DNA of 64,000 nt, from assembly GCA_964512915.1 (NCBI GenBank), contig CAZEKJ010000007.1:15572-79571 (forward strand), written 5' to 3'. A model generated the notes under the pieces. It saw only the letters and a list, made by a program, of their open reading frames with translations, made no database searches and had not been told where the DNA came from. The position numbers and the translations under genes were made by a program. Within the stretch, counting starts at the first letter, position 1, and every line of letters begins with the position of its first letter. Below are positions 1,832-63,290 of this stretch, piece by piece. This DNA comes from an uncultured Porphyromonadaceae bacterium. Lineage in GTDB: Bacteria; Bacteroidota; Bacteroidia; Bacteroidales; UBA12481.

Positions 1832-2030
1832 CAGGCCTCCCTGCGGTCGGCTAAGAGGCTCCGCTTCGCTCCGCTAACAGGGGCTAAAGCCCTAACAGGC
1901 CATAGCGTTAATGCATTATTAGCGCGAAGCGCCTGTTCCCGTAGCGAAGCGGAGCCTTTTAGCGAGGCGTAAGCCGAGCCTCTTAGCCGAGCGCAGCGAG
2001 GCTTGTTAGCGAGCGCAGCGAGCCTGTTAC
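1832..2030. repeat. Imperfect palindrome of about 200 bp built from about 22-nt units (approx. TTAGCCGAGCGCAGCGAGGCC)
   Basis: The left half carries the units inverted (AGGCCTCCCTGCGGTCGGCTAAG...) and the right half carries them direct. Flush with the GH92 stop (1829-1831) and the radical SAM stop (2031-2033). Confidence 0.8.
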
Positions 2031-2912
2031 TTAGAATAATCGCAGCTGCTCCTCACTCCCCCCCCGATGTTCTCTGGCCGGAGCCACGTACACCTCCCAC
2101 GGCCCGAACTCTGCCTGCAAGGACCGGATCAGCGGGCGAAGGGTGGATTTGTAGGATTCATCTGCGTTGGCGCCGGTATACAATCTTGAAATATCGGGAT
2201 AGATCCCGGGCAATTCCTGCCGGATCATTTTCATAAAGGGTTCACGTGTGCTGCCGCGCAAATGCAGGGTACCGGTTTCAACAAAGTTCACGCGGGCGGA
2301 TCGGGCACTTTCGAAGATCCCTCTCAGGTTTTCAGGAGAATCCGTGAGAAAGGGAATAAGCGGCATGACCAGCACGCCGGTACGGCAGCCGATATCCCGG
2401 AATGCGGGCAGCATAGCCAGCCGCTGTGCCGTTGGGGCGGAATCAGGCTCCGTCTTTTTCCGGATGGATTCATCCAGGATGGAAACCGATATGATCACTG
2501 AAACCGGAGCAACCAAGGCTAGCTCACGGATAAGTTCAAGGTCGCGCAGGGGAAGTATGGATTTGGTTACAATGGTCAGCGGATTCCTGTGCCGGATAAA
2601 GGTTCGGATCACATCCGGCATCAGTCGGTATTGCTCTTCAGCCGGCTGGTAGGCATCGGTAACCCCGCCCACATTTACAGGTTCATGGGTCCAGCCTCGC
2701 TTCGACATTTCACGGTCGAGCGGCTCCACAATGTTGGTCTTGACGTAAATATCCCGGAAGAAATCAGCGTCCTCGAGGTACCGGTGCGAATATCGGGCAA
2801 AACAGTATGTGCAACCATGCCCGCAACCCCTGTAGATATTTACATCCCAGTTGGTTGCAAAAGTGTTCTCATGAAAATGCAGGGCCGATTTGGCCTGTAC
2901 CTCTTTGATCAT
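2031..2912 (-). CDS. Radical SAM protein, SplB/COG1533-like (DNA repair photolyase-like family)
   Basis: 293-aa ORF with the CxxxCxxC cluster motif in NIYRGCGHGCTYCFARYS. Layout matches the PA0069/SplB-like radical SAM family. Confidence 0.75.
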   Translation of the reverse strand: MIKEVQAKSALHFHENTFATNWDVNIYRGCGHGCTYCFARYSHRYLEDADFFRDIYVKTNIVEPLDREMSKRGWTHEPVNVGGVTDAYQPAEEQYRLMPDVIRTFIRHRNPLTIVTKSILPLRDLELIRELALVAPVSVIISVSILDESIRKKTEPDSAPTAQRLAMLPAFRDIGCRTGVLVMPLIPFLTDSPENLRGIFESARSARVNFVETGTLHLRGSTREPFMKMIRQELPGIYPDISRLYTGANADESYKSTLRPLIRSLQAEFGPWEVYVAPAREHRGGSEEQLRLF

Positions 2913-3018
2913 TAACTGAGCATTGTAAGGATCAAAAGATAATCATTTTTATTTTCGAAAGGGTACGGGATAAGTGGGATTTGTCTTATTGAATCCGTCC
3001 AGCCTAAATCGAGTTTCC

Positions 3019-3108
3019 TAATTAGCGCGAAGTGCCAATTAGCCGACCGCAGGGAGGCCATTTAGCCGAGCGCAGCGAGGCCAATTAGCGACCGCAGGGA
3101 GCCAATTA
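3019..3108. repeat. Tandem array, about 4 units of AATTAGCCGACCGCAGGGAGGCC-type 21-23-mers
   Basis: Units read at 3019, 3037, 3060 and 3083. The last partial unit AATTA supplies the TAA stop (3106-3108) of the minus-strand gene. Confidence 0.85.
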
Positions 3109-7947: not shown

Positions 7948-7962
7948 CTCTCTTATAATTAG

Positions 7963-8018
7963 CACATTATCACATTAGCACATTATCACATTGGCACATT
8001 GTCACATTGTCACATTGA
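7963..8018. repeat. (CACATTNN)x7 octamer array in a divergent promoter region
   Basis: Seven contiguous 8-nt units. Ends 16 nt upstream of the ATG at 7947. Confidence 0.9.
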
Positions 8019-9429: not shown

Positions 9430-9436
9430 GGCAACA

Positions 9437-9596
9437 GGCAGAAGGCAGAAGGCAAAAATTAGTCTTAAGTCCTTATGGCTTAAGAAACAAGTTTAAGTAA
9501 CAAGTTAGGGCAGTAGGGCCGCATATATGTGGCCTTTTCTGCCCTTTTACTTTTTTCCTATTACTAATTTCTGCCTTCTGCCTTCTGCCCTCTGCC
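9437..9596. repeat. GGCAGAA-armed palindromic element, subfamily A
   Basis: Left arm GGCAGAAGGCAGAAGGCAAAAATTAGT, right arm ACTAATTTCTGCCTTCTGCCTTCTGCCCTCTGCC. The core shares CTTAAGTCCTTA with the copy at 63151. Confidence 0.9.
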
Positions 9597-9643
9597 TTAT
9601 TTCAGGTCTTTTCCATACCTTAGGGCACACAAACCATCAAGCC

Positions 9644-11083: not shown

Positions 11084-11125
11084 GGGCACAGGGGCACAAG
11101 GGCACAAGGGCACAAGGGCACAAGG
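11083..11125 (+). repeat. (GGGCACARG)n G-rich octamer/nonamer array
   Basis: Five G-tracts immediately after the stop TAG at 11081-11083. Confidence 0.9.
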
Positions 11126-11129
11126 CTCC

Positions 11130-11224
11130 CGTCTCTTAGTCTCTTAGTCTCTTGGTCTCTCAGTCTTAAAGTCTCTCAGTCTTAAAGTCTCTCAGTCTTA
11201 TAGTCTCTCAGTCTCTCAGTCTTC
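11130..11224. repeat. (AGTCTCTC/AGTCTTAA)n octamer array
   Basis: About 12 units. The 3' end and the TGA stop (11208-11210) of the minus-strand gene lie within it. Confidence 0.9.
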
Positions 11225-12627: not shown

Positions 12628-12713
12628 GGGGGCACAGGGGCACAAGGGCACAAGGGCACAAGGGCACAGGGGCACAGGGGCACAGGGGCACAAGGGCACA
12701 GGGGCACAAGGGG
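12628..12713 (+). repeat. (GGGCACARG)n array, 11 G-tracts
   Basis: Read directly from the sequence. Lies between divergent genes (starts at 12566 and 12775). Confidence 0.9.
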
Positions 12714-13929: not shown

Positions 13930-13995
13930 GGGCACAAGGGCATAAGGGCATAAGGGCATAGGGGCAGGGGGGCATAGGGGCATAGGGGCATAGGG
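13930..13995 (+). repeat. (GGGCATARG)n array
   Basis: GGGCACAAGGGCATAAGGGCATAAGGGCATAGGGGCAGGGGGGCATAGGGGCATAGGGGCATAGGG. Confidence 0.9.
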
Positions 13996-15494: not shown

Positions 15495-15680
15495 CAGTTG
15501 CCGGTTGCCGGTTGCCAGTTGCCGGTTATTTCGCTCTGGTGTCATTCCGGTGAAAACCGGAATCTCCGAATTGGGTGTGAGTGTGAGTGTGGGTGTGAGT
15601 GTGATGGGGATTTCTGACTTCCGTCAGGATGACAGTTCGGGCGAAATAACCGGTAACCGGCAACCGGTAACCGGCAACTG
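15495..15680. repeat. Nested palindromic element: 40-nt heptamer arms (GTTGCCG family) enclosing two GTCAT...GAAA-type hairpins and a (GTGTGAG)n tract
   Basis: Arms at 15495-15534 and 15641-15680 are complementary with 3 mismatches. Inner hairpins at 15541-15564 and 15609-15633. Confidence 0.85.
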
Positions 15681-15684
15681 ATCT

Positions 15685-17115: not shown

Positions 17116-17149
17116 TTTGTCCTGGGGGACGAGTAAAGATAAGAAAAAA

Positions 17150-17280
17150 GGCAGAAGGCAGAAGGCAGAAATTAGTAAGAGGTTAAAAGACAGAAGTAAT
17201 AAGTTAGAGCAGAGGCACCCTTCTTTCTTTTTACCTATTTCTTCTTCCTAATTTCTGCCTTCTGCCTTCTGCCCTCTGCC
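17150..17280. repeat. GGCAGAA-armed palindromic element, subfamily B
   Basis: Arms GGCAGAAGGCAGAAGGCAGAAATTAGTAAGAGG and CTTCTTCCTAATTTCTGCCTTCTGCCTTCTGCCCTCTGCC. The right end is flush with the GH95 stop (17281-17283). Confidence 0.9.
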
Positions 17281-19623
17281 TTATATAGCCTTCTTCCGCT
17301 CGCCCGGGCTCAGGGTTACGGCAACCTGTTTACCGGCATATGTGATGTCTGCTGTTCCACCGGTTTTCGAGCTCACATAAGCCTCTGTAATCTGTCCGTC
17401 TTTCCATTTCAGGTCGAACACAAAGCCTCCGCGGGCGCATAAACCTTTGTAGGAGCCGGTGTTCCAGGCTTTTGGTAAGGCCGGCAGCAGGCGGATCACG
17501 CCGCCGTGCGACTGGATCAGCATCTCGGCGATGCCGGCGGTGCCGCCGAAGTTGCCGTCGATCTGGAAGGGCGGATGGGTGTCGAACAGGTTTTTCATCG
17601 TACACTTCCGAAGCAGGCTCAACACGTTCTGATAGGATTTTTCACCATCCTGCAGCCGGGCATACTGACAAATGATCCAGGCTCGGCTCCAGCCGGTCTG
17701 ACCGCCGCCGAACGATAGCCGCCGCTCGATGGTAGCCCGTGCGGCATTGTAAAGCTCAGGCGTTTCAGGCGTGAACTGGCCCAGCGGGTAGAGTCCGAGC
17801 AGGTGCGACATGTGCCGGTGTCCCGGCTCCACCTCCTCATAATCCTCGATCCACTCCTGGATCACCCCTTTGGAATTGATACGGACCGGGGGCATGCGTT
17901 TCTGTGCGGCCTCGAGTTTAGCAGCAAACTCCGTGTCGGTGCCGAGAATCCGGCAGGCCTCCCGGCAATTATCAAACATCGTGTTCAATATCTCGATATC
18001 CACGGTGGCTGCATAGGTCAGCGCCGAGCTTTCCCGGGTTTTGGTGCCCGGAATCAGGAAGGCGTTTTCCGGACTATGTGAAGGATTTGTAACCAGATAG
18101 CCCTCGGGCGATTCCACCAGAAATCCGAGTACAAACTCGGCTGAGCCCTTCATCATCGGCCATGCCACGTTGCGCAGGAAGGCGGTATCGCCGGTGAAAA
18201 GGTAGTGCTCATACACCGTGAAAGTCATCCACGGCCCGTTCAGCGGCGTGATGCCCCATACCCCGTCGGCCACGCCGGTGCGGCCAAATGGGTCCACCAG
18301 GTGATGGAAAACCCACCCGTCGGTTCCGTACATTTCTTTGGCGGTAACCGTGCCCGGCTTAACAAGCTGTTCCATAAAGTTCACCAGCGGCAGTGCGGTT
18401 TCCGACAGGTTGCACACCTCAGCCGGCCAGTAGTTCATCTGGAGATTGATATTGGTATGGAAATCAGAATTCCAGGCCGCATTCATGTCCTTGTTCCAGA
18501 TCCCCTGCAGGTTGGCTGGCAGCTGTGCAGCACCGCGCGACGAGCCCATCAGGAGATAGCGGCCGTACTGGAAATACATAGCCAGCAAGGCATTATCTTC
18601 CCCGCCCTCTTTCATTTTGGCCAGCCTCACATCGGTTGGCAGCGAATCCAATTCTGATCCGCCCAGGTCGAGATCAACCCGGTTAAACATCGGCTGATAT
18701 TCCGCCAGATGCCGTTTCATCAGGTTTTTATCGGTCTGATTTTTAGCCTCATCCAACGTTTTCGCGCATACCGCCGCCGGATCGATGGACCGGTCGAAGT
18801 CCAGTTTGGTCAGGGAATAATCGGAGGCGGCGGCAAAACGCAGGCTTACCGAATTCGCCCCATCGATTGTCATCCCGGCGGAAGCCGGGATCCCCTGGCC
18901 ATTGTGCGTAATCCTCGCCTCCCCGGCAAATTTCATGTGTGCTCCGGCCGGACCGCTGCCGGCATCCTCGCCGTCGATGATCTGGCCGTTGAGGTGGATG
19001 GTACCATCGCTGTCGGTGGTGATCACGGCATCTTTTTCGCGGGTCATGGAAATCGTTGCATCGATTTTGCCTCCATCCAGGGCTTTGATATTGATGATCA
19101 GGATATTATCGGGAACCGAAGCGTATACTTCCTGCCGGTATTTCTTGCCGTCGACGGTAAATTCGGTGGCTGCTACCCCGGTTTTCAGGTCGAGCGACCG
19201 GCGGTATTCCGTTGGCTCGCTCTTCCAGCCGTAATCGATCAGCAGGTCGCCCAGAGGCTGATAGGAGCGGATCCGGGGTGGGGTTCCGAGCATATGGTCA
19301 TTCGCCAGCTGCCAGGCTTCCTTGAAACGGCTCTCAAACAGGGCCTTCTGGATTTCAGGCAGGTGCTGCAGGGAGCCCGGATTGTTGTTGTTCACCGGAC
19401 AGCCAGCCCAGATGCTCTCCTCGTTGATCTGGATCCTCTCATGCGTGGCATTGCCGAAAACCATGGCGCCCAGCCGGCCGTTGCCCACAGGCAGGGCTTC
19501 GTTCCAGTCCTTGGCGGGCTGGTTGTACCACAGAGTGAGATGGTTTGCATCAGGCTTTGAACCCGGATTTCCACAGCCGGTAAGCATAGCTAACCCGGCC
19601 AAAACAAAGAAAATATTTTTCAT
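17281..19623 (-). CDS. Glycoside hydrolase family 95 (alpha-L-fucosidase-like)
   Basis: N-terminal LWYNQPAKDWNEALPVGNGRLGAMVFG...ERIQINEESIWAG is typical of GH95. 780 aa. Lipoprotein signal. Confidence 0.85.
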   Translation of the reverse strand: MKNIFFVLAGLAMLTGCGNPGSKPDANHLTLWYNQPAKDWNEALPVGNGRLGAMVFGNATHERIQINEESIWAGCPVNNNNPGSLQHLPEIQKALFESRFKEAWQLANDHMLGTPPRIRSYQPLGDLLIDYGWKSEPTEYRRSLDLKTGVAATEFTVDGKKYRQEVYASVPDNILIINIKALDGGKIDATISMTREKDAVITTDSDGTIHLNGQIIDGEDAGSGPAGAHMKFAGEARITHNGQGIPASAGMTIDGANSVSLRFAAASDYSLTKLDFDRSIDPAAVCAKTLDEAKNQTDKNLMKRHLAEYQPMFNRVDLDLGGSELDSLPTDVRLAKMKEGGEDNALLAMYFQYGRYLLMGSSRGAAQLPANLQGIWNKDMNAAWNSDFHTNINLQMNYWPAEVCNLSETALPLVNFMEQLVKPGTVTAKEMYGTDGWVFHHLVDPFGRTGVADGVWGITPLNGPWMTFTVYEHYLFTGDTAFLRNVAWPMMKGSAEFVLGFLVESPEGYLVTNPSHSPENAFLIPGTKTRESSALTYAATVDIEILNTMFDNCREACRILGTDTEFAAKLEAAQKRMPPVRINSKGVIQEWIEDYEEVEPGHRHMSHLLGLYPLGQFTPETPELYNAARATIERRLSFGGGQTGWSRAWIICQYARLQDGEKSYQNVLSLLRKCTMKNLFDTHPPFQIDGNFGGTAGIAEMLIQSHGGVIRLLPALPKAWNTGSYKGLCARGGFVFDLKWKDGQITEAYVSSKTGGTADITYAGKQVAVTLSPGERKKAI

Positions 19624-19767: not shown

Positions 19768-19865
19768 TTAACCACAATAGGCTCAATAGGACACAATAGA
19801 TTTTAAAATCAATAAGGACGGATGTATCCGTCCCTACTGTGTTCTGTTGTGCCTACTGTGGTTAA
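19768..19865. repeat. Palindromic element with (CACAATAG-like) octamer arms and a central hairpin
   Basis: TTAACCACAATAGGCTCAATAGGACACAATAG ... GGACGGATGTATCCGTCC ... CTACTGTGTTCTGTTGTGCCTACTGTGGTTAA. The arms pair with 5 mismatches in 32. Confidence 0.8.
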
Positions 19866-24268: not shown

Positions 24269-24298
24269 GATGGGCCCGAAGTCACCCCCGGGCCCATC
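24269..24298. terminator. Perfect 10-bp GC-rich hairpin (GATGGGCCCG / CGGGCCCATC) downstream of the GH127 gene
   Basis: Inverted repeat read directly from the sequence, with a 10-nt loop. Adjacent to a CTTTCTT repeat tract. No clear U-tract on the minus-strand transcript. Confidence 0.4.
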
Positions 24299-29615: not shown

Positions 29616-29620
29616 AAAGG

Positions 29621-43351: not shown

Positions 43352-43450
43352 AAGGCGAAAGGAAAAAGGCGAAAGGCGAAAGAAAGAGAAAAGAAGAAAG
43401 AAGAAAGATTAAAGATTAAAGAAAGAGTTAAGATTGAAAAGAAATTAAAG
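43352..43450. repeat. Purine-rich repeat tract (GGCGAAA)n(GAAGAAA)n(GATTAAA)n
   Basis: Read directly from the sequence. Lies in the divergent region between the starts at 43319 and 43523. Confidence 0.85.
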
Positions 43451-43476
43451 ATGATATTCACCCAACCACTATCTTT

Positions 43477-43522
43477 AACCGGCAACCGGCAACCGGTAAC
43501 CAGTAACCAGTAACCAGCAACC
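43477..43522 (+). repeat. (AACCGGC/AACCGGT/AACCAGT/AACCAGC)x6.5 heptamer array flush with an ATG
   Basis: Ends ...AACCAGCAACC, directly followed by the ATG at 43523. Confidence 0.9.
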
Positions 43523-47175: not shown

Positions 47176-50100
47176 CTCAGGAGCCGGTTTCTTTGTCTCC
47201 GGCTCAAACTCAATCATCTGGGTGACATACTTTTCCTTCGATTCCGGGAACCGAAACTCCCGCTCCTCAATGATCCGGTCGCGGATCACCCGGATCTTTC
47301 CCCCGCTGCCGCTCAATCCCTCCACTTTAACCCGATATGTTGCCCCGGCAAGTTCATCGGAAATAATCTTGAAACCGGTGGATGAGTCGCCGGGTGCCGG
47401 ATGATGAACAACAGGCAGTACCCCGATACCACCGCTGTGATTGACGATCACCCGGATCTTATCATAGAGGGGAGCCATAGGAGTAATGCTTTGCCGGAGT
47501 TGTGAGAAATCGCCCGGGATTTTTGCTACAAGTCTTCCGATATCGATGGTACCCCCCTCAATCCGTGTACCGGGAAGCAGCTCAATATCCATTCCTATAT
47601 ATATTCGCGTGGTATCGGCAGCCTGATCTCCGGTTTTACTGCGCACGAAATCCAGCTGAGTCTGGCCGGTTCGCCTCACCTGCGTCATGGAAAAGGAGTG
47701 AACCCCGATCCGGATATTCTCAACGGTCACCGAATCCCAATCCATGGGGAACTCCGGATTCAGGTATACATAATTTTTAATCGCATCGGGTTTGAATCCC
47801 AGCATCCCGTCGATGGCCGGCTGGATCACCATGGTTTCGCTCCAGCACTGATGGCGGCATACCCCGAAATATTTGTATTGGGTGCCATGGAGCACCTCCT
47901 CAATATAGCCCAGCGACCAGTTTTTGTAAATCAGCAGGTTGCTCATCAGTTTAGAGTACCCCTGAGCGGAATTGCCGGCCGCAAAATCTCCGAGGGAAGC
48001 CCAGCCGGTAAAGAGCGGCCACACACTTCCTGTATGGTAACCACCCGGCGCGAAGAATTTCGCCTTTTCACTCACGATCCGGGTTCCCCAGTCGGTGGTG
48101 AAATTGGGTGACGCGATCCTGTCAACCACGGCCCTTTTCTGTTCCTGGCTCCTGATCTGTCCCCAGTGCAGGGGGATGGCCGTCATCACCGAGGGCTCGG
48201 TCATGTAGGTGCCATCCTTGAAAATCCCGTGGTTGAAGAATTTCGTTTCCGGGTTCCAGAATCCGGTGTTCAGTTTATCCAGAACCACTTTCGCCTCATC
48301 GGTATATTTTGTTTGCAGTTCTTTAAGCCCGATATTTTCAGCCATATACGCTGCCTGCCCCAGTGCTTCGGCCCAACAGGAGACCATATACTGCGTGGTA
48401 TGGGTGACATAAAGATCACCGCCCTCTTCCCAGCCGTGTCCCTGCTGGGTGTTCTCGATCAGGTGGTCGCGGTCGGTATCGGTGGAATAACAGAAATCGA
48501 TGGCCTTTTTAATGAATGGCCACTCCTTGCGGATGAAAGCGGTGTCGCCGGAGTGATGTAAGTATTTGCCAGCCAAAACTATATAAAGAGGTGTGGCATC
48601 CGCCGCATCAAAATGTGCGATGCCTGAGGTGGTCAGTTCATGGTAGATTTTTCCTGAAACGTCCTGATACCTGGAAAAAAGCTCCAGGATGGTTTTTACA
48701 CGTTCAAAATCGCCATAATCGAGAACGGCAAACCCGCTCCAGACGGCATCCCGACCGAAATACCACGCGTAGCCTGGACGGCCGTTGACTTTTTGGGCTC
48801 CGTTCCAGCCGTAATCCGTGGTAGCGTATCCCGCAACCAGTGAGCGGCCCACACCGGGGGTATTCACGATAAACCGGTCGCTGCCCACCAGTGCCCACTT
48901 ATAGCCGGTATTGAAATCGGCATCCGGACCGGTGATGGTCAGTTTTCCATTGAAGAGTGATTTTGCATAATCCACAGCTGCAGCATAAACGGCATCCGGC
49001 TTCATCGCCGCCCTGCGGTAGGCTGAAACAGCCTCGGTGACACCGGTAGCCGAGGTCCCCAGCACCACATCGGCCATACTTTCCGGTTCCATGACCGTCT
49101 CCAAGGTTAGTGCCACCCTGAGTCCCTGATCCGGAGATCCGGTTTTAGCCGTAACAGGCACATTCATCCCGATGGTCATGGCGAAATCGCCCGATTTATC
49201 CCTGACAACCCAGGCGTTCAGCACCTCATTCCAGGAGTAGCGGATTTCGCCGGTAACCTTTTCCGAATAGGGCCACATAAACCGGAGGTTGCTTTTCAAG
49301 CTGATTACCAGATCGATCGGCTGGTCCCCGGAATAAGCATAGTGGATCACCGCATTCCCGTCGGTCGGGTGTACGGTGATGATCTCCTTCAGGAGGCTTT
49401 CCCCGAATGCGTAGATCCGGGTAAAAGATTCCGGTCTAACCTCGATGGCCGGTTTCAATGTATTCAGCGCGATTTCCTTATCGGGATTATGCATTCTGAT
49501 TTTAACCTGATAATCGCGCAGAGCCATAACCGGATGCGCCCACACCTCATCGATCCCGCCGGGCTCCTTGCCCAGAATCACCATTCTCTCGCCGGCAATA
49601 TCCCACATGTTCTTAGGCTGGGCCGTGGCCTTGAGGGTGATCTCACTATCATGCTGCACCCAGGGCTCAGGCTTCCCTAACCACAACTTTATACCTGCTT
49701 CTTCTTCCTGATTTCTGCCCTCTGCCCTCTGCCCTCTGCCTTCCTCTTCAGCTACGACAGGCGGTCCATAATCCCAATTCCTCACCTGGCTCACCATCGT
49801 CTGGCCGTCCAGGTAATCCAGCACATTCCGGGTAAATTTTTCCAGATGGGAGCTGTTATAATTGGGCATGTCATAATCCAGATAGGCCCCGATGGCCAAA
49901 ATTTTTCCTTTTCCCAGGGTGTATTCCGTGATCAGTTTATTCTGATCATAGAGGAATATGTATGCCCAGTCAACCGCTACAACCTTTCCGTCGGGAACAG
50001 CCTCTCCGAACCATCCTACTCTCCGTACATTGATGTCCTGTTTTGGCGCATAGACATAGGCCCCGCCAAGCATCCCGTCGAAAATCGGGTGACTGCGGAA

Positions 50101-51630
50101 GGCGTGCAGTCCCAGTTTCCGGCCGTTTCCTTCATCCACCAGTTTCGTATAGGAAACCGTTGGGGCCACCTTCTCCACCCCCAGGTATGGGAGCAATCTG
50201 ACAGCGTCCATGGTCAGCAGCAGGCTGCCGCCCTGCTCAACATGCCTGCGAAACTTCCCGGCCCACTCCGCTGCCTTTTTATCCAGGTCAACGGTTGAAT
50301 CCGGCTCGTGATACCAGAGCACTTTGCCATAGGGGGTTGGGGTCCCCGCTTTCGCGGGGATGACAAGTGCATCTGCACCATCCGGGTTCGCCGGGATGAC
50401 AAGAGCCTGATCTTGAATATCTTGTTTCTTTCTTTCGCCCCCGGGTCGAGCCCGGGGCAGGCTTTTCGCCTTTCGCCTTTCGCCTTGTTTCTCCAGCGCA
50501 ACCCCCTGCTCCCAATTTACGACATACTGCCACCAATTATTCAGATGCCCGTCCTCCGGATTGATCCCTTCGAAATGCGGAATATGGCTGAACCACCAGC
50601 TCATGTACCCTTCGTGTGAACATTGCCACTCGGAACAGTCCACCGTTCGGGTCATATCGGGCTTAATATCAGGATAATAGTTCCATCCATCGGCACATGT
50701 GGTAACCGGCGTTTTGTTCACCCAGTCATAATCAAACATGCCGTTGGGGGGAAAATGGATATTCCCGATGTTCGCCAGTCCGGGGTGTGTTTTGTTGAAG
50801 CGGGTATATTTCTCCCAGTTGTTGGGGACGGGCTCGTTATAATCCCAGCGGCCGTAAAGGTGCCACATCACGGATTCGAAGCGGTGACCGTAGCTTTCGA
50901 GTGCCAGCGACATTTTCCGTTCGTAGTTCAGTCCCATTACCACCAGAAGTTCCTTGTTCGAAGTGGTGGTTGTGGGTTCGGAGTTGAGCCAGAAGCCGGT
51001 GGCGCCGCAATAGTTGGATTCCCACATGCCTCCGTAAGGAAACGACCAGACCCACACCTCATTGATCTGATTTTTATCGCGCATTTTGTCGAAGCCGTAG
51101 TGCTCCACAAACTCCTTGTAATCGAAATGCGTTCCGGTCTCCTTGAGGGTTTTCCAGTCGGGCTCCATCAGCAGGTTGACCATCTCATCGGTGCCGAGCA
51201 TCACATTATTATCGTTCCTCCGGGAGAAGAACTTCCCGTCATCGATGATCTTTACCACCTCATACTGTACCACCCCATGGCTGATCTTTTCCAGGGCGGC
51301 CTCGTACTCCCGGTTCAGCACCATCGGATCGTTCCACATGAAGGTGCGGCCCGGGGTTTTCACCACCTCATGGAGCCGCTTGCCGCCATATTGAGGCAGC
51401 GCCGGATCCTGGATGACGACCGCGACTTTCACCTTGATGGGCTTGGCGGGGGGGAGCTGGGCGAAGGCAGAAGGCAGAGGGCAGAAGGCAGAAATCAGTA
51501 AGAAGAAGGAAGGAAGAAGGAACAGGTTTCTGCCAGCCTGTAGCTTCAGAGCCGGAGCGGAGCTGGGACATAAAACCCCGGGCTGAACCCCGGGGTTACT
51601 GATGTCTGTCGAAGACGATTTTCTAATCAT
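45760..51630 (-). CDS. 1956-codon composite ORF: unknown module A, unknown module B, glycogen-debranching (GDE_C/amylo-alpha-1,6-glucosidase-like) module, GH13 alpha-amylase-family module
   Basis: Uninterrupted frame. Module junctions consist of repeat modules otherwise seen in intergenic DNA. Whether it is one polypeptide is uncertain (see findings). Confidence 0.55.
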   Translation of the reverse strand: MIRKSSSTDISNPGVQPGVLCPSSAPALKLQAGRNLFLLPSFFLLISAFCPLPSAFAQLPPAKPIKVKVAVVIQDPALPQYGGKRLHEVVKTPGRTFMWNDPMVLNREYEAALEKISHGVVQYEVVKIIDDGKFFSRRNDNNVMLGTDEMVNLLMEPDWKTLKETGTHFDYKEFVEHYGFDKMRDKNQINEVWVWSFPYGGMWESNYCGATGFWLNSEPTTTTSNKELLVVMGLNYERKMSLALESYGHRFESVMWHLYGRWDYNEPVPNNWEKYTRFNKTHPGLANIGNIHFPPNGMFDYDWVNKTPVTTCADGWNYYPDIKPDMTRTVDCSEWQCSHEGYMSWWFSHIPHFEGINPEDGHLNNWWQYVVNWEQGVALEKQGERRKAKSLPRARPGGERKKQDIQDQALVIPANPDGADALVIPAKAGTPTPYGKVLWYHEPDSTVDLDKKAAEWAGKFRRHVEQGGSLLLTMDAVRLLPYLGVEKVAPTVSYTKLVDEGNGRKLGLHAFRSHPIFDGMLGGAYVYAPKQDINVRRVGWFGEAVPDGKVVAVDWAYIFLYDQNKLITEYTLGKGKILAIGAYLDYDMPNYNSSHLEKFTRNVLDYLDGQTMVSQVRNWDYGPPVVAEEEGRGQRAEGRNQEEEAGIKLWLGKPEPWVQHDSEITLKATAQPKNMWDIAGERMVILGKEPGGIDEVWAHPVMALRDYQVKIRMHNPDKEIALNTLKPAIEVRPESFTRIYAFGESLLKEIITVHPTDGNAVIHYAYSGDQPIDLVISLKSNLRFMWPYSEKVTGEIRYSWNEVLNAWVVRDKSGDFAMTIGMNVPVTAKTGSPDQGLRVALTLETVMEPESMADVVLGTSATGVTEAVSAYRRAAMKPDAVYAAAVDYAKSLFNGKLTITGPDADFNTGYKWALVGSDRFIVNTPGVGRSLVAGYATTDYGWNGAQKVNGRPGYAWYFGRDAVWSGFAVLDYGDFERVKTILELFSRYQDVSGKIYHELTTSGIAHFDAADATPLYIVLAGKYLHHSGDTAFIRKEWPFIKKAIDFCYSTDTDRDHLIENTQQGHGWEEGGDLYVTHTTQYMVSCWAEALGQAAYMAENIGLKELQTKYTDEAKVVLDKLNTGFWNPETKFFNHGIFKDGTYMTEPSVMTAIPLHWGQIRSQEQKRAVVDRIASPNFTTDWGTRIVSEKAKFFAPGGYHTGSVWPLFTGWASLGDFAAGNSAQGYSKLMSNLLIYKNWSLGYIEEVLHGTQYKYFGVCRHQCWSETMVIQPAIDGMLGFKPDAIKNYVYLNPEFPMDWDSVTVENIRIGVHSFSMTQVRRTGQTQLDFVRSKTGDQAADTTRIYIGMDIELLPGTRIEGGTIDIGRLVAKIPGDFSQLRQSITPMAPLYDKIRVIVNHSGGIGVLPVVHHPAPGDSSTGFKIISDELAGATYRVKVEGLSGSGGKIRVIRDRIIEEREFRFPESKEKYVTQMIEFEPETKKPAPEVVYYVLPRSFYDSNGDRIGDLNGLKKKLDYLQDLGVTSILTLPLMESESYHNYFAKDYWKIDPEYGTMKEFTELLREIHKRGMRFYLDMETQYVTEGSDWYASKPDYQLAGTPWGKVISYDGTSRGLNMANLNHPEVKKYFYDLYHYFLDPNKDGKFDDGVDGFRIDHIMDDLDFTGRLTNLYAGFWKPLFDELRAINPNIRIIGEQANWMEYGTEIFKKADLDLVFAFPLYMAINSLDKNQIQNKLDTTYLMTPPGKDQLIFIENHDVDRFASLMNGDLAREKVGAAFNLLLKGTPLIYYGQEIGMKGIKHEVPTDGDQISRREAFEWYKNTEGPGMAHWYKNSGIWWDKRYGKANDGISVEEQIKDPNSLWNFYKTLISLRKQYPALAHGEVRILPNDNPGVITFVRTLGDFKNWIWVAINLTGTLQELEKPHYSVNGYLGEVLFAEPADSRLESIRIHLPPYGIIVSR
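47176..49692 (-). other. Glycogen debranching enzyme-like (GDE_C) module
   Basis: YFGRDAVWSGFA, ADATPLYIVLAGKY, GHGWEEGG and GGYHTGSVWPLFTGWAS motifs are typical of amylo-alpha-1,6-glucosidase-type (alpha/alpha)6 enzymes. Confidence 0.7.
49698..49740. repeat. Single arm of a subfamily-B GGCAGAA element inside the composite ORF
   Basis: CTTCTTCTTCCTGATTTCTGCCCTCTGCCCTCTGCCCTCTGCC is followed by TTC where intact copies have TTA. No partner arm is present. Confidence 0.85.
49741..50340 (-). other. Module B of the composite ORF (unknown function, about 200 aa)
   Basis: PYGKVLWYHEPDS...NWDYGPPVVAEEE. A GTG lies at its start. Ends exactly where intact repeat copies carry a stop codon. Confidence 0.45.
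50341..50484. repeat. Composite of intergenic-type modules inside the composite ORF
   Basis: On the minus strand: (GGCGAAA)x3, GC hairpin CCCCGGGCTCGACCCGGGG, GAAAGAAAG, then two GTCATCCC...GAAA/GAAC hairpin units (50379-50400 and 50341-50364). Confidence 0.85.
50485..51459 (-). other. Module A of the composite ORF (unknown function, about 325 aa after the repeat-encoded N terminus)
   Basis: Compositionally normal coding sequence, PAKPIKVKVAVVIQDP...NNWWQYVVNWEQGVALEKQ. No family recognised. Confidence 0.5.
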
Positions 51631-51718
51631 TCCAGAGAGTTGTTATAATGAATACCTTATAAGACTTTAAAATTTTCACTTTCCTTTCTGCCTTTCTGCC
51701 CTCTTGCCCTTCTGCCCT
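51460..51718. repeat. GGCAGAA-type element whose left arm is translated as the N terminus of the composite ORF
   Basis: Left arm at 51460-51525 (GGCGAAGGCAGAAGGCAGAGGGCAGAAGGCAGAAATCAGTAAGAAGAAGG). Right arm at 51679-51718 (CTTTCCTTTCTGCCTTTCTGCCCTCTTGCCCTTCTGCCCTA). The ORF ATG at 51630 lies in the core. Confidence 0.7.
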
Positions 51719-56624: not shown

Positions 56625-56785
56625 CCAGTTACCGGTTGCCAGTTGCCGGTTGCCGGTTGGGCCAGAACTGTCATTCCGGCGAAAGCCGGAATCCCCTGAC
56701 AAGTGCTCCGGGGCCTGGGATCCTGACTTTCGTCAGGATGACAGTTCCGGCCCAACTGGTAACTGGTAACCGGCAACTGGCAACT
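56625..56785. repeat. Nested palindromic element, same architecture as 15495-15680
   Basis: Heptamer arms at 56625-56663 and 56749-56785. 10-bp stem GAACTGTCAT/ATGACAGTTC. Hairpins at 56670-56693 (GAAA loop) and 56719-56742. The left arm is flush with the stop at 56622-56624; the right arm ends 11 nt from the stop at 56797-56799. Confidence 0.9.
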
Positions 56786-56796
56786 TCTCCCAAGAG

Positions 56797-58170: not shown

Positions 58171-58262
58171 AGTAGTTGGTTGCTGGTTACTGGTTGCTGG
58201 TTCTGGTTGCCGGTTGCCGGTTACCGGTTACCGGTTACTGGTCACTGGTCACTGGTCACTGG
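58171..58262. repeat. 12-unit heptamer array drifting from GTTGCTG to GTCACTG
   Basis: Fills the spacer between the stop at 58256-58258 (inside the last unit) and the ATG at 58170. Confidence 0.9.
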
Positions 58263-59128
58263 TTTTTCCATTGGTCGTTTAGGGTTAGGAATGCGCGCGG
58301 CAGGTCTTCGTTTTTCCAGGAGCCCTCAATGGAGATGCCTCCGTGATAGCGTATTTTCTTCAAGGCCTCAAAGTAAGGACGAAAGTCATCTCCATCCATT
58401 CCGGGCGCTGTGCGGGTTCTGAGTTCGGCAATATGGCAATGAACCAGAAGATCACCGGCATCCAAAATGGAGGAGGGCCCTTCATTTTCCCGCATCATGT
58501 GAAAAATGTCTGCTAAAACTCTGATATTCTTATCGTTAACTTCTCTTGCGATCGAAGTGGCCTCGGTTACGGTATTGATAAAATTGCATTCCGATTTTTG
58601 CAGGCTTTCTATGGCGATGGTCACATGGTATTTCCGCGCAACCGGACCCATTCTTTTCAGCAGGCTTACAAATTGGTTCCGGGCTTCTGACCGGTCGAAC
58701 TCTTCGGGGATCGAACGGGCTCCCGAACTGCCAAATACGATGATCCGGATCCCGGCCTGTTCCGCCCTCCGGAAGGCCACCTCTGCATAGCTCAGAACCG
58801 TATCGTGCCTGGCTTCCGGTCCGGTTACCTTAAGTGTTCCCGGAAGGAATCCGTTGCAGGCAATTACCGGCAGCTTGCAGGTATCAAATTCGGCCATTTT
58901 CTTCTGGAACTCTTCATCAGGTTTTCCGGGCATCAGGTCGCGTCCCACACTCCCTTCCAGGTACCGGAAGCCCGCTTGTTTCAGTATAGATGCGTTTGAC
59001 AGGGAGGTGCAAACGCCGAACTGTGGACCCTGCTCTCGTGCCGATGCTCCGATCCTTGTGGCCGGTTTGCATGCGGGTAACCCGATAAGAACGGCAGCTA
59101 TCAGGATAAGAAGAGGCCTGTTTTTCAT
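58256..59128 (-). CDS. Sugar phosphate isomerase/epimerase (xylose isomerase-like TIM barrel), lipoprotein
   Basis: 290 aa. AP_endonuc_2-like pattern (IRIIVFGS..., ESLQKSECNFIN, HCHIAE). The stop lies in the heptamer array. Confidence 0.7.
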   Translation of the reverse strand: MKNRPLLILIAAVLIGLPACKPATRIGASAREQGPQFGVCTSLSNASILKQAGFRYLEGSVGRDLMPGKPDEEFQKKMAEFDTCKLPVIACNGFLPGTLKVTGPEARHDTVLSYAEVAFRRAEQAGIRIIVFGSSGARSIPEEFDRSEARNQFVSLLKRMGPVARKYHVTIAIESLQKSECNFINTVTEATSIAREVNDKNIRVLADIFHMMRENEGPSSILDAGDLLVHCHIAELRTRTAPGMDGDDFRPYFEALKKIRYHGGISIEGSWKNEDLPRAFLTLNDQWKNQ

Positions 59129-60550: not shown

Positions 60551-60587
60551 GACTGGTCACTGGTCACTGGTCACTAGTCACTACTCC
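60551..60587. repeat. (GTCACTG-family) heptamer array overlapping a gene 3' end
   Basis: GACTGGTCACTGGTCACTGGTCACTAGTCACTACTCC. The TAG stop (60574-60576) and the last 3 codons of the SGNH hydrolase lie in it. Confidence 0.85.
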
Positions 60588-61242
60588 TCAATCCCACCGC
60601 CTTCCCCACCGCCTCACGCCAAATCTCGTAACCTTTCCGGTTCAGGTGAAGCCCGTCATCCAGGAACAGTTCCTGCCTGGGCTTTCCTTCCGCATCAAGC
60701 ATCAACTTCCATATATTAATGTATCGCACCCCCCGGGTCCGGCGCGCGAATTTCCTCAGGGATTCGTTTAAGGTAAGATAGTCTCCACTGAGGCGCCATC
60801 GGGCCAGGCTGGGCTTGGCTGACAGGAACCAGATCCTGGCACCGGGCTGCTTCGAGTGAATCAAGGCGACCAGTTTGCCGGCCTGACTGATGATCGAATC
60901 AACACTTGTCCCATATTCGATATCGTTATCCCCCTCATATACAATTACTTTAGCCGGATGATAACGTACAATAAGCAGGTCAGCATAGAATAGAAGGTCA
61001 CTCATGTGTGACCCTCCGAATCCGGTATTAACCAGGTTAACTCCCGGGAAATCGGTTTTGAGTCCCTCCCACAACCGAATACTTGAACTTCCGGTAAACA
61101 GGACCAGCTCACCGGAATCCGATTGGCTGGCATTCTCTGCCTTCAACCGGTCGACCTCGCCCTGAAATCTGGCGGGATCCTGTGCGGCTGACTGCAATAT
61201 CGCAGCACCCGTTAAAAGAAGGGCAAGGAGGAATGGTTTCAT
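60574..61242 (-). CDS. SGNH/GDSL hydrolase (esterase), secreted
   Basis: Blocks FTGSSSI (Ser), GFGGSH, YEGDND and DDGLHLN (Asp-x-x-His). Confidence 0.8.
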   Translation of the reverse strand: MKPFLLALLLTGAAILQSAAQDPARFQGEVDRLKAENASQSDSGELVLFTGSSSIRLWEGLKTDFPGVNLVNTGFGGSHMSDLLFYADLLIVRYHPAKVIVYEGDNDIEYGTSVDSIISQAGKLVALIHSKQPGARIWFLSAKPSLARWRLSGDYLTLNESLRKFARRTRGVRYINIWKLMLDAEGKPRQELFLDDGLHLNRKGYEIWREAVGKAVGLRSSD

Positions 61243-61278
61243 TTTGTGGAATTAAATAGTAACGAGTAAATTTAGCAT

Positions 61279-63150
61279 ATGAAAACCATTATTTTCCTAT
61301 CTGCCCTGGCGCTTTTTTGCTCCTGCAACCAGACTCCAACCACCACGATTTTCGTTGGTTCAGAGGGTAACGATCTTAACACAGGTTCAAAAAATGAGTC
61401 CCTTCGAACACTTGAAGCAGCTCAGAAGCTTGTTCGTGAAATGCGGGAAAAAGAACCCGGAAAATCCGTAAAAGTTATCCTCGGAGCAGGTACCTGGCAT
61501 ATTGATAAGCCTCTGTTTTTTGGTTCTTCTGACGGGGGATCCGGAAAGGCAACCGTTACCTGGGAAGGCCAGCCCGATGGCGGGACCGTGATTTCCGGCG
61601 GTACGCTGATCGGCGGTTTCAGGGATGAAGGGTATGGGATCTGGTGGGCGCCGGTCGACAGCACCAGAGTTTTTGAACAGCTCTATGTTAATGGAGTCCG
61701 CGCTACCCGAGCCCGTTACCCGAATATGGATGATCCCAAGCCGAGAATCTACCTGGATCATTCCTCCTGGATTTACAATCAGGACTCGACGGTAAAAAAT
61801 ATTAAAGTCACGCTGCGCGACAGCACCCTGACGGATCGTCTTTTTCTTGGAAATACCTGCGAGGTGGTCGTCTTCAAGGACTGGACGATATCCCGGTTTC
61901 ATGTTTCCGGCTTTATATCTGAACCGCCCGCCCTGCTGCTAAAGCCGCCGTTTGCACTGTTTGACGGACCCTACAATTCGATTTTTGCCGGAAATTCAAA
62001 CCGGTACAGCTGCTATCTCGAAGGGGATCCCACCTTCGTGGACCAACCGGGCGAATGGGCGCTCGATAGGGCTGGCAGCCGGGTGTTTTACAAACCGCTG
62101 CCTGGACAGACCCTTGAGAGTGTTACGGTGATTGCGCCCATGGCACAGCAGCTCGTGGTTATGAAAGGAGACGCGGAAAGTCCAATTACGAATTTAGAGT
62201 TCCGAAGTATAAGGTTTGAAAATGCCGCATACCTGTTGCCGGAATATAATCACGATGGGATGCAGGCTGCTTTTTATTATCCGGGAAATTCGGAAAAAAC
62301 GACTGGCCCGGGTCTGATTCCTCCAGCCATCGAGATGGCATGGGCGGAAAATTGCAAGGTTTCGGACTGTACCCTGCGAAACATTGGCGGGAATGGCATT
62401 TACCTTCGTGAGGGGTGTCGGAATAACCGGATAAAAAATAGTATTGCCGAAGATATCGGAGGGAACGGGGTCATGATCGGGCTCACGTTTGACCCGAAAG
62501 CGGACTCGCCACTCCTGCCTGTCAACAACGTGGTCACCGGATCCACCATCCATAATTGCGGGGTCGGGTTTCACGGCTCGGTCGGGATTTGGCTCGGCTT
62601 CTGCGCGGAAAATGAAATATCGGACTGTGAGGTATATGACCTTCCGTACACCGGCATTTCGGTGGGCTGGCAGTGGAATCCGCAACCCACCTCCTCGAAA
62701 AACAACCGCATCCTGAATAACCGTATTCATCACGCCATGCAGATGCTTGGCGACGGTGGCGGAATTTATACCCTCGGATTCCAGCCGGGTTCCGTCATAT
62801 CAGGAAATGAAATTCACGATATCCTGAGGAGCGAACTGAACCATGCCTCAGACAATAACGGGATGTTTATCGATGAAGGCAGCAAGGGGTACCTGATTGA
62901 GAACAACACCATACGAAACACGGCACATACCAGCATCCGCGGCCACCGGGCTGCCGGAGTAGAGCTTATCGGAAACACCTTTTATTCCGGCGAACAGGCT
63001 GCCATCAGCCACACCCCGCCTTACGAAGCCATGATCTTCGTGAACAAAGACACCACAGTGTCCTGGAAAAACCCCGGATGGCCAGTGGAGTGGGGGTATC
63101 CGGAGAAGATTACGGCGTTTACGATGAAAGGGAATACCTTTAAGAAATAA
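61279..63150 (+). CDS. Right-handed parallel beta-helix repeat lipoprotein (pectate-lyase-fold)
   Basis: Signal LSALALFCSCNQ. Repeated NxxIxNxGGNGI-type turns (NIGGNGIYL, DIGGNGVMI, GDGGGIYT). Confidence 0.7.
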   Translation: MKTIIFLSALALFCSCNQTPTTTIFVGSEGNDLNTGSKNESLRTLEAAQKLVREMREKEPGKSVKVILGAGTWHIDKPLFFGSSDGGSGKATVTWEGQPDGGTVISGGTLIGGFRDEGYGIWWAPVDSTRVFEQLYVNGVRATRARYPNMDDPKPRIYLDHSSWIYNQDSTVKNIKVTLRDSTLTDRLFLGNTCEVVVFKDWTISRFHVSGFISEPPALLLKPPFALFDGPYNSIFAGNSNRYSCYLEGDPTFVDQPGEWALDRAGSRVFYKPLPGQTLESVTVIAPMAQQLVVMKGDAESPITNLEFRSIRFENAAYLLPEYNHDGMQAAFYYPGNSEKTTGPGLIPPAIEMAWAENCKVSDCTLRNIGGNGIYLREGCRNNRIKNSIAEDIGGNGVMIGLTFDPKADSPLLPVNNVVTGSTIHNCGVGFHGSVGIWLGFCAENEISDCEVYDLPYTGISVGWQWNPQPTSSKNNRILNNRIHHAMQMLGDGGGIYTLGFQPGSVISGNEIHDILRSELNHASDNNGMFIDEGSKGYLIENNTIRNTAHTSIRGHRAAGVELIGNTFYSGEQAAISHTPPYEAMIFVNKDTTVSWKNPGWPVEWGYPEKITAFTMKGNTFKK

Positions 63151-63290
63151 GGCAGAAGGCAGAAGGCAAAAATTAGACTTAAGTCCTTAATCCTTAAGTA
63201 AAAAGTTAAGTATGAAGGAGGGCACAAAGCCAACCTTTTTACTTTTCTATCTTATTTCTTTTTACTAATTTCTGCCTTCTGCCTTCTGCC
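63151..63290. repeat. GGCAGAA-armed palindromic element, subfamily A
   Basis: Exactly fills the gap between the convergent stops TAA (63148-63150) and CTA (63291-63293). Confidence 0.9.

Follow-up and report, generated by a model that had tools for sequence, protein, structure and literature searches.

The spacers of a 64,000-nt window (the whole stretch analyzed here: contig CAZEKJ010000007.1 of assembly GCA_964512915.1, positions 15,572 to 79,571, from an uncultured Porphyromonadaceae bacterium of the Bacteroidales) are filled with tandem arrays of mostly 7-nt units, part of which are arranged as inverted arms of long palindromes. Because the same arms surround a four-helix-bundle gene (PF05635/TIGR02436) in related contigs, the cassette formed by arms and gene is a candidate parent element for the design. 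With moderate confidence, we read the window palindromes as gene-less derivatives of such PF05635 hairpin cassettes and the solo arrays as remnants of single arms, the arms having been remodeled by slippage.

Tandem Repeats Finder (TRF) returned 79 rows for the window, which were merged into 35 arrays of period 6-9 with at least three copies (1473 nt); 30 dinucleotide-preserving shuffles of the window held 0-1 arrays each. Period 7 was commonest (23 arrays), followed by period 8 (6 arrays), and there were two 23-mer arrays in addition. On a gene map made of the largest non-overlapping open reading frames (ORFs), corrected by Pfam matches and N-terminal inspection, 4805 nt of the window (7.5%) are intergenic and 59099 nt coding. 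Arrays make up 31.7% of intergenic nucleotides versus 0.47% of coding nucleotides, and of the 27 spacers that measure 50 nt or more, 21 contain one. Head-to-tail arrays of 5-11-nt, mostly 7-nt, units beyond chance length define the heptamer repeats known as long simple sequence repeats (LSSRs) or short tandemly repeated repetitive (STRR) sequences, a strong intergenic bias is a second trait of this type, and both are seen here. An earlier note on this DNA, made from the sequence alone, had stated that nearly every spacer is built from short tandem repeats, and the counts uphold it. All unit families that it named are present, the window holding GGCAGAA, GGCGAAA, GAAGAAA, the GTTRCYG series, GGGCAYAR, GTCTCTCN, CACATTNN, CACAATAG, GTGTGA and the ∼23-mer TTAGCCGAGCGCAGCGAGGCC. 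Its description of the repeats as intergenic holds as a strong bias, with the qualification that several arrays are read in frame and one is part of a conserved signal peptide. Special mutagenesis (for instance by a deaminase) as the source of unit variants was rejected, as the transition:transversion ratio between neighboring units is ordinary (57:17 in the window, 554:321 in metagenome loci). An Rfam search, proposed in the earlier note, gave 0 matches at the gathering threshold, and no tRNA or Rfam family was found that explains the window repeats; the palindromes yielded only far-sub-threshold matches to miRNA-precursor models, as generic long hairpins.

Two structural classes were distinguished in the window, palindromic composites and arrays without an inverted partner. 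Folding confirmed ten palindromic regions (1829-2033, 9430-9600, 15490-15684, 17145-17283, 19765-19868, 33158-33300, 35670-35869, 51463-51718, 56622-56790 and 63148-63293), that is, all the palindromic examples given in the earlier note plus 51463-51718, which it had not listed. Nine had RNA minimum free energies (MFE) of −48 to −117 kcal/mol and z scores of −6 to −13.5 against shuffles; the tenth, 51463-51718, had paired arms and an MFE of −105.7 kcal/mol, a figure given without a shuffle z. In their shared layout, an outer array of heptamers is followed by an inner, degenerate one, then by a variable core and by inverted versions of both arrays; the elements span 130-260 nt and have no gene. 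A central segment bracketed by tandem arrays of 7-8-nt units in inverted orientation is one trait of the proposed grouping of PF05635 cassettes, and all ten window elements display it. Five palindromes are of the GGCAGAA type (9430-9598, 17148-17282, 33161-33299, 51463-51718 and 63149-63290), and two of the GTTRCCG type share the same two core hairpins (15497-15678 and 56625-56785). The window GGCAGAA copies are only 63-82% identical among themselves and therefore form an old family. The plan of array, core and inverted array put forward in the earlier note is upheld by these regions. All three non-palindromic regions that were folded (11081-11210, 39766-39888 and 43345-43525) had z scores of about 0, no better than shuffles, and the other arrays are solo. 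Degenerate four-helix-bundle remnants were sought in the palindrome cores (panel hidden Markov model [HMM], six-frame translation), and none appeared at E ≤ 1.

The GGCAGAA family is dispersed well beyond this genome. Its junction pattern, GGCAGAAGGCARAAATTAG, matched in 96 metagenome stretches, and there are 16 further complete palindromes, in both orientations, built of (GGCAGAR)3-6, ATTAGT, degenerate CTTAAGA/ATAAGAA heptamers, a variable core and the mirror image. Across 20 GGCAGAA copies, arms and junction are common and cores differ, which corresponds to the conserved inverted ends and variable interior of MITEs (miniature inverted-repeat transposable elements); in the orthologous copies of two loci with ∼80% identical flanks (L048 and L111), the arms are kept and the cores are unrelated. 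In about 17 of the 20 copies, no more than 0-6 nt separate the start of the element from a long ORF's stop, and many have an A-run before and a T-run after them. No exact match of the 23-mer family was found outside the window among 132 loci. Compensatory evolution of the inner stems was unsupported, since the left arm of a copy scored a mean of 23.4 against its own reverse-complemented right arm and 22.4 against those of other copies. Own pairs thus had no advantage over pairs between copies, and only the outer 25-40 bp can be taken as a reliable stem.

In three metagenome contigs (L035, L038 and L099), the same GGCAGAA...ATTAGT arms enclose ∼400 nt with a 116-aa gene that matches PF05635 (“23S rRNA intervening sequence protein”; 2.5e-17), TIGR02436 (“four helix bundle protein”; 6e-25) and PDB 2RLD (2e-14). 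A PF05635 gene also lies next to GGCAGAA-type arms in L055, L065 (GC 0.37) and L086 (GC 0.62); L035, L038, L055 and L099 are orthologous loci, and L065 and L086 are independent. In total, the panel HMM detected eight PF05635 genes or remnants in 604 kb of metagenome loci, with arms flanking the gene on both sides or on the one side covered by the contig (the right arm alone in the case of L065). Among the eight are two remnants that have other arms, namely TAATGTGC/GCACATTA (L100) and GATGTGCT (L109); in L100 (9390-9720), inverted arms of the CACATT type, which is the CACATTRN family of the window, surround the remnant. The window families found as arms of PF05635 genes are therefore GGCAGAA, CACATTRN (in L100) and ACTGGTC (in Euhalothece), the last being the unit of window array 58177-58264. 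Arms turn over unit by unit, as one cassette arm differs in heptamer number and order between L142 and L143, which are 97% identical.

As a test free of arm-based selection, plasmids in PLSDB were searched with the protein alone and 14 contexts were inspected. Period-7 arrays abut the gene in 11 of these and are inverted on both sides in nine of the 11; the other three contexts have other short repeats. The array-flanked hosts were Nostocales, Planktothrix, Euhalothece, Chondrinema, Treponema and Chlorohelix, and their arms differ by lineage: TTCGTAA/TTACGAA (Dolichospermum and Nostoc flagelliforme), AAGTCGG/CCGACTT (Nostoc punctiforme and Nostoc commune), GTAAAAA (Anabaena cylindrica), CAGTKAA/TTAACTG (Chondrinema), CAGTTAC/ACTGGTC ×12.6 (Euhalothece), TTTACGA with AATCCCC (Planktothrix), GGAAAGN ×41 and CGGAGAG (Treponema) and CATAATT (Chlorohelix). 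A protein profile search, in which every one of at least 8000 scored PF05635-family candidates had E ≤ 1e-8, supplied four further contexts (a Paludibacteraceae metagenome-assembled genome [MAG], a Riflebacteria MAG and two long Joint Genome Institute [JGI] contigs), all four with heptamer arrays. Period-7 arrays thus flank the PF05635-family gene in 15 of 18 protein-selected contexts, across five phyla. As a control, 50 kb each of the Euhalothece and Treponema plasmids were scanned, where period-7 arrays occurred only beside the gene, one Euhalothece array lying ∼1.3 kb off. In 50 kb of the N. flagelliforme plasmid, both PF05635 genes sit flush between inverted arms of 4.7 units, with two gene-less palindromes of similar arms and some solo arrays nearby, like the window in miniature. 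Arms there are uniformly ∼4.7 heptamers (33 nt) around genes and in gene-less palindromes alike (L133: 19524-19980, 26775-27200, 20754-20961 and 39400-39534), and the PDB 2RLD entry has 5 chains; a tie between arm length and the oligomeric state of the four-helix-bundle protein would be pure speculation. PF05635 genes typically sit between genes of one operon, such as hsdS/hsdR, cas2/cas1, helicase/methylase or RND (resistance-nodulation-division) adaptor/permease. Placement in defense operons (between or beside cas2-cas1, hsdS-hsdR or helicase-N6-methylase genes) was seen in L118, L122, L123, L124, L127, L134, L136 and L142. The searchable literature, which misses most subscription journals, yielded no description of the link between PF05635 genes and heptamer arrays.

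Two rival accounts were weighed. We think it unlikely that the elements are ordinary long simple-sequence repeats that grew by slippage in place and were paired by selection for terminators, with neither mobility nor a link to any gene. The dominance of period 7 is what a prokaryote-wide survey found (Mrazek 2007, as cited in PMC4679880), the transition bias among neighboring units (57:17) is ordinary, units turn over between strains and many arrays are solo. Against it count the unique non-repeat junctions (ATTAGTCTTAAG...) and core hairpins common to copies at different loci and in different genomes, the elements sitting where relatives have no spacer at all, and the replicons of low background that carry heptamer arrays only beside the PF05635 gene. 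The reverse order of events seems more improbable still, namely that palindromes came first as host terminators or structured spacers and PF05635 genes are homing passengers of hairpin loops with the arrays as targets. The cargo does lie where an otherwise typical palindrome has its loop, palindromes with a gene are fewer than those without, and classical intervening sequences are established residents of rRNA hairpin loops; but the Euhalothece and Treponema plasmid regions offer no gene-free heptamer arrays as targets, and arm units vary by lineage yet always accompany the gene.

Several observations weigh against descent from PF05635 cassettes. The panel HMM detected no PF05635 gene or remnant in six-frame translations of the 64-kb window at E ≤ 1, and the window copies are therefore gene-less derivatives at best. 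The metagenome loci were picked via the GGCAGAA arm, so that the sets free of this bias are L100, L109 and the protein-selected contexts, and for the GTTGCCG-plus-core, 23-mer, CACAATAG, GGGCACAR and GTCTCTCN families the tie to the cassette is one of analogous design. Two non-palindromic composites (11084-11222 and 39767-39882) form no hairpin and are left unexplained by a hairpin model. Inner arms pair with their own partner no better than with those of other copies, giving no covariation support for a conserved RNA. As the earlier note had also recorded, no target-site duplication is evident, the flanks (TAA|...|TTA and AAA|...|TTT) being inverted rather than direct and continuing the palindrome. 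Filled and empty sites were paired only in relatives at least 20% diverged, with no such pair in closely related strains, and we know of no nuclease, transposase or recombinase activity of PF05635 proteins.

Gene content is Bacteroidota-like (GH92, GH95, GH127, DUF4838 and others), and the closest genomes, which share 57-68% amino acid identity, belong to Bacteroidales or “Porphyromonadaceae” MAGs. In syntenic relatives (L014-L018; 66-68% amino acid identity), the stops of the aminopeptidase gene and the 655-aa gene overlap by 4 nt (CTAA/CTAG), whereas the same junction in the window has a 137-nt GGCAGAA palindrome instead. Two more orthologous stops are empty in relatives of ∼79% nucleotide identity, L107 being without the 23-mer palindrome after GH92 and L068 without the GGCAGAA element after GH95. 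We conclude that the elements, which orthologous sites of relatives lack, were acquired within this lineage, at places where there had been practically no spacer. An assembly or sequencing artifact, the doubt that the earlier note had attached to the arrays, has next to no chance of explaining them. Short-read contigs do break at arrays, and European Nucleotide Archive (ENA) contigs L013 and L020 terminate inside them (L013 at 2577-2602 and L020 at its end; window 33161 and 35714). Nonetheless, the ENA short-read contig L019 is 100% identical to the window over 3202 nt and reproduces exactly the whole 194-nt composite at 35673-35866, and dozens of unrelated assemblies, as well as finished plasmids, carry the same family. 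No length polymorphism of the window's own arrays was seen against the ENA contigs, which are identical or end inside arrays. As short-read assemblies of this organism break at arrays, MAGs of the lineage are likely to be fragmented at gene boundaries and the elements under-reported.

Window elements usually begin 0-6 nt after a stop codon. The claim that they are flush with stops or starts stands for the stops, and it extends to the 16 further GGCAGAA copies of other genomes; for starts, part of the appearance arises because ORFs run on through stop-free arrays. Units composed of only three kinds of base (GGCAGAA, GGCGAAA, GGGCACAR, GTTGCCG and GTCTCTCC) can form no stop codon on either strand, and ORFs extend into arrays because units without A or T have no stop in any frame. 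The ORF called at 9527, for example, has its true start near 9644, with a lipoprotein signal peptide. (AACCRGY)n arrays abut the ATG of four genes (starts 29563, 35672, 43523 and 58170). Arrays are read in frame at 38135-38198, at 41145-41174 and at three places within a 1956-aa ORF. For the first of these, (C)TTTCGC/CTTTCTC units occur at the same place of the M14 peptidase signal peptide in the orthologues of L014 and L017; the array is in frame in three species (window 38110-38210 [+], L014 10411-10500, L017 6979-7060), and the window version is 4 residues longer. Such arrays could suggest contingency loci, in which genes are turned on and off as the number of units varies, either by altered promoter spacing or by frameshifts where a 5′ array is coding. 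A unit of 7 nt is not divisible by 3, some arrays encode part of a signal peptide or end directly upstream of an ATG, and heptamer repeats govern hmw expression in Haemophilus (PMC8262952). Even so, most arrays lie after stops or between convergent genes for housekeeping and glycan degradation, no difference in length separates the window from the ENA contigs, and the M14 signal-peptide array stays in frame in three species, which leaves phase switching a very improbable explanation.

Under the reading as derivatives of PF05635 cassettes, the few intergenic bases of a very compact Bacteroidia genome would have been colonized by gene-less hairpin elements and by solo arrays resembling single arms. 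The parent would be a widespread small cassette whose full form carries a ∼120-aa four-helix-bundle gene (PF05635/TIGR02436), and the window elements would be its miniature, cargo-less copies, comparable to MITEs beside an autonomous element, with unit-wise slippage changing arm length and unit order. In a transcript, both arms could pair into a long stem that might serve as a bidirectional terminator, as a site of RNase III processing like that of rRNA intervening sequences, or as both, and such a stem may make insertion between tightly packed genes tolerable; stop-free arrays could be absorbed into coding sequence as signal peptides and linkers. We infer the terminator or RNase III role of the window hairpins from their form: stems are far longer than is usual for terminators, and A-runs and T-runs flank many copies, which would fit a bidirectional terminator. 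The stop-flush position is most simply explained by ancestral spacers of ∼0 nt together with a deletion bias, elements presumably lying flush because non-essential DNA was lost; alternatively, there may be a preference for targets at stop codons. A wider hypothesis, put forward only tentatively and in our view doubtful, is that the heptamers of STRR sequences, Xanthomonas, Beggiatoaceae, Bacteroidota and other groups are arms or remnants of one widespread, so far unrecognized class of selfish hairpin cassettes with a gene for an Avd-like four-helix-bundle protein. This protein (pentameric in PDB 2RLD and in Avd) would bind to the repeat units and help the cassette to spread or the arrays to grow, possibly via RNA or a reverse transcriptase, in the manner of diversity-generating retroelements. 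Gene-less copies would then saturate a compact genome, as in the window, and be co-opted as terminators, leaders and signal peptides.

Coordinates of the individual elements are collected in Table 1.

Table 1. Palindromic, solo and coding repeat elements of the 64-kb window (MFE in kcal/mol; z against shuffles)
Position	Strand	Element	Context and evidence
1832..2030	.	Palindromic composite of ∼22-23-nt units (TTAGCCGAGCGCAGCGAGGCC family)	Between convergent stops of GH92 gene (1831) and radical-SAM gene (2031); TRF period 23; MFE −117/−110, z −8.9/−6.3
3013..3108	-	Direct 23-mer-family array (TTAGCCGAGCGCAGCGAGGCC type), ∼3.3-4 copies	Flush with DUF4838 stop (3106); TRF; modest fold, z −3
7958..8016	.	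Solo octamer CACATTRN ×7.4	Divergent spacer; TRF
9430..9598	.	GGCAGAA palindrome: (GGCAGAA)n ATTAGT - core - ACTAAT (TTCTGCC)n	Begins at MFS (major facilitator superfamily) gene stop (9429); true start of next gene near 9644; MFE −87.5, z −11.9
11084..11222	.	Composite: GGGCACAR ×5.2 (11084-11125), then GTCTCTYA ×11.5 (11131-11222)	Convergent genes; both arrays purine-rich in the sense of the gene each follows; z −2.9/+1.9
12629..12712	+	Solo octamer GGGGCACA ×10.5	Divergent spacer; TRF score 133-152; GGG tracts 5 nt apart, would fit a G-quadruplex motif
13930..13995	+	Solo octamer GGGCATAG ×8.2	Between PMT_2 stop (14047) and small minus-strand ORF; TRF
15497..15678	.	GTTGCCG palindrome; core of two small hairpins (GTCATTCCGGTGAAAACCGGAATC, TCTGACTTCCGTCAGGA) and GTGTGA ×5 array	MFE −93/−109, z −11 to −11.6
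17148..17282	.	GGCAGAA palindrome	Flush with GH95 stop (17281), then T-run on transcribed strand; z −8.2/−10.5
19773..19865	.	Imperfect palindrome of CACAATAG type, central GGGACGGAT...ATCCGTCC hairpin	TRF; MFE −47.8, z −9.0
24295..24328	-	Purine-rich array, AAAGAAG on minus strand	Directly after GH127 stop (24327); then GGGCCC...GGGCCC hairpin; TRF
29564..29616	-	Solo GTTRCYG ×7.6	Occupies whole 57-nt spacer; coding strand (AACCRGY)n up to ATG at 29563
33161..33299	.	GGCAGAA palindrome	Exactly between convergent stops of aminopeptidase gene (33160) and 655-aa gene (33298); MFE −83, z −13/−10
35673..35866	.	Composite: GTTGCTG ×2.4, CGGGTAT ×3.6, hairpin core, GATACCC ×2.9, AAATCGT ×3.3, TCCGTCG ×3	z −9.2
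38135..38198	+	Coding arrays TCTTTCT ×5 and CTTTCGC ×4.4	Hydrophobic core of peptidase M14 signal peptide (FPLSSFFFLLSFAFRLSPFAL)
39767..39882	.	Second composite: GGGCACAR ×8 and GTCTCTCC ×5.5	Convergent genes; TRF; z −0.7/+1.3
41145..41174	+	Octamer AGGGCACA ×3.8, 30 nt	In frame within PGA_cap ORF, encodes GEVGHEGTGAHGHEG
43352..43523	+	GGCGAAA/GAAGAAA purine-rich arrays (43352-43452) and (AACCRGY) ×6.7	Divergent spacer; (AACCRGY) part flush with ATG at 43523; z +0.8
49714..49740	-	(GGCAGAG)n half-arm	In frame, 1956-aa ORF
50330..50486	-	(GGCGAAA)3, GC hairpin, two GTCATCCC..GGGGAC hairpins (“VIPAKAG”)	In frame, 1956-aa ORF
51463..51718	.	GGCAGAA-type palindrome, 256 nt	After DUF4432 gene stop; MFE −105.7; pyrimidine arm translates as signal-peptide-like N-terminus of 1956-aa ORF
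56625..56785	.	GTTRCCG palindrome	Between convergent genes; core hairpins as in 15497-15678; MFE −110/−105, z −13.5/−11.5
58177..58264	-	Solo GTTRCYG/GTCACTG-series array ×12.7	Spans spacer from stop 58256 to start 58170
60552..60582	-	Solo ACTGGTC ×4.4	At GDSL-lipase gene stop
63149..63290	.	GGCAGAA palindrome	Exactly between convergent stops (63150, 63291); MFE −64/−68, z −9.6/−8.3

The 1956-aa ORF (45760-51630, −) contains an unannotated N-terminal part, a GDE_C/MGH1-like domain and an alpha-amylase domain, with the TTCTGCC arm at residues 36-56, GGCGAAA and the “VIPAKAG” hairpins at 381-440 and GGCAGAG at 630-640; it represents either a true fusion whose linkers derive from repeats or separate genes that stop-free arrays have run together. 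A 537-aa ORF (29621-31234, −) that joins a beta-carbonic anhydrase domain (88-232) to an esterase/alpha-beta-hydrolase domain (314-443) may be another fusion. The hairpin motif GTCATTCCGGCGAAAGCCGGAATC, which gives VIPAKAG if read through, recurs at 15541-15564, 56670-56693, 50341-50364 (−) and 18869-18892, in element cores and once inside the GH95 gene; it presumably resembles the short palindromic repeat that many genomes show as “VIPAKAGI” pseudo-peptides. The aminopeptidase P gene has an internal 9-nt repeat, TCAACCAAT ×4.9 (32201-32244, +), which is also present in the independent contig L013 and may explain why this protein, at 451 aa versus 443 aa in relatives, is 8 residues longer. A stretch of low GC (0.42-0.47) at 20000-23050 contains genes for a RhuM-family protein, a DUF5128 beta-propeller and a HigB toxin as well as a 646-nt spacer free of arrays; it has the look of an island with an origin apart from the array-rich backbone.

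Heptamer arrays have been noted for 35 years in cyanobacteria and other groups, and among the long simple repeats of prokaryotes, tandem heptamers form the commonest class, to our knowledge with no accepted origin or function. Likewise, we know of no role for the very large PF05635/TIGR02436 family outside diversity-generating retroelements. The physical link between gene and array turns these two puzzles into one testable system with three questions: does the protein bind the units, do the arms serve as RNase III sites, and do the cassettes move? As the link between gene family and arrays crosses phyla, the old question of where bacterial heptamer repeats come from becomes directly testable, and arms around a four-helix-bundle gene in many bacteria point to a shared origin of these long-unexplained repeats. 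For this genome, the arrays explain why short-read assemblies shatter at gene boundaries and why ORF callers extend or fuse genes through stop-free repeats, and they mark where transcript ends or processing sites should be sought in a lineage with almost no spacer DNA.

Among known systems, heptamer-dominated long simple sequence repeats have been described before (Mrazek 2007, as cited in PMC4679880). The earlier note could not place the combination of features that it saw, although heptamer arrays and inverted pairs of them are already on record (PMC4692102, PMC4679880); its choice of STRR sequences and of repetitive extragenic palindromic (REP) sequences and bacterial interspersed mosaic elements (BIMEs) as precedents was sensible for comparison, with membership in REP/BIME unsupported (no GTAG head). 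Like the STRR sequences of heterocystous cyanobacteria, the window arrays are tandem, intergenic 7-nt units with many families per genome. The STRR units CCCCAGT and TTGGTCA are similar to ACTGGTC and AACCAGT of the window. Unlike STRR sequences, the window arrays belong to a Bacteroidia genome, occupy ∼80% of spacers and go together with a defined palindromic element and, in relatives, with a PF05635 gene; for STRR sequences, such a link was not found in the searchable literature, yet it was present in the Nostoc, Anabaena and Dolichospermum plasmids inspected here.

GGGNATC arrays of Xanthomonas and Nostoc were interpreted as one unit family that forms G-quadruplexes (G4), with 70-75 inverted GGGAATC array pairs per Xanthomonas genome, arrays ≤50 bp after stops and a preference for ∼4 units (Rehm et al. 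2015; PMC4692102). The window shares heptamer arrays after stops, and its GGGCACAR unit also fits a G4 motif, but most window units (GGCAGAA, GTTRCYG) are not G4-prone, and that study describes no core, junction or associated gene. TAACTGA arrays lie immediately upstream of starts in Beggiatoaceae, Cyanobacteria and five Bacteroidetes, with relatives lacking arrays at the same sites; almost no inverted arrangement was seen (one case), and translational regulators were proposed as binding partners, with no link to a cassette (MacGregor 2015; PMC4679880). They resemble the (AACCRGY)n-ATG arrays of the window, and in Chondrinema, CAGTKAA/TTAACTG arms flank the four-helix-bundle gene.

The 23S rRNA intervening sequences form a stem-loop that is removed from rRNA by RNase III. 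Those with an S23p/PF05635 ORF place the same protein family within a long stem of inverted flanks; window elements differ in lying between protein-coding genes, in their tandem-heptamer arms and in having no ORF, and no rRNA in the window offers a 23S helix for insertion. PF05635 is homologous to Avd of diversity-generating retroelements (PMC10053308). The BrickBuilt MITE of Porphyromonas gingivalis has an internal minisatellite of 23-nt period and unique inverted-repeat ends (PMC4596501). It is likewise non-autonomous, intergenic, from Bacteroidales and built of inverted ends and a tandem repeat, with a period like that of the window 23-mer family, but its repeats are internal whereas those of the window are the arms, and the longer copies that share ends with the window elements carry a PF05635 gene, not the transposase of a MITE parent.

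REP/BIME sequences and the REPINs mobilized by REP-associated tyrosine transposases (RAYTs) are abundant extragenic palindromes after stops with possible roles as terminators or mRNA stabilizers (PMC3116915), and the window elements are also extragenic palindromes after stops. That they are REP/BIME- or REPIN-like and mobilized in trans by a RAYT (an IS200/IS605-type Y1 transposase) elsewhere in the genome is quite improbable. Elements that are intergenic, palindromic, high in copy number and often placed after stops would suit such a system, and 64 kb of the genome are in view; Pfam searches of all window ORFs of at least 120 aa revealed no Y1 transposase or cognate RAYT and, in agreement with the earlier note, no other transposase or integrase. 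The arms are 20-45-nt tandem heptamer arrays with an ATTAGT junction rather than 20-35-nt REP hairpins with a conserved GTAG head, a head seen neither in the window elements nor in the metagenome copies, and the cargo in relatives is PF05635, not RAYT. Membership in REP/BIME and in MITEs each fails on at least one defining feature. Apparently new in the searchable literature are the density of these repeats in a Bacteroidia genome, the families of arm, junction and core, the co-option of arrays into coding sequence and the link between heptamer arms and PF05635 genes.

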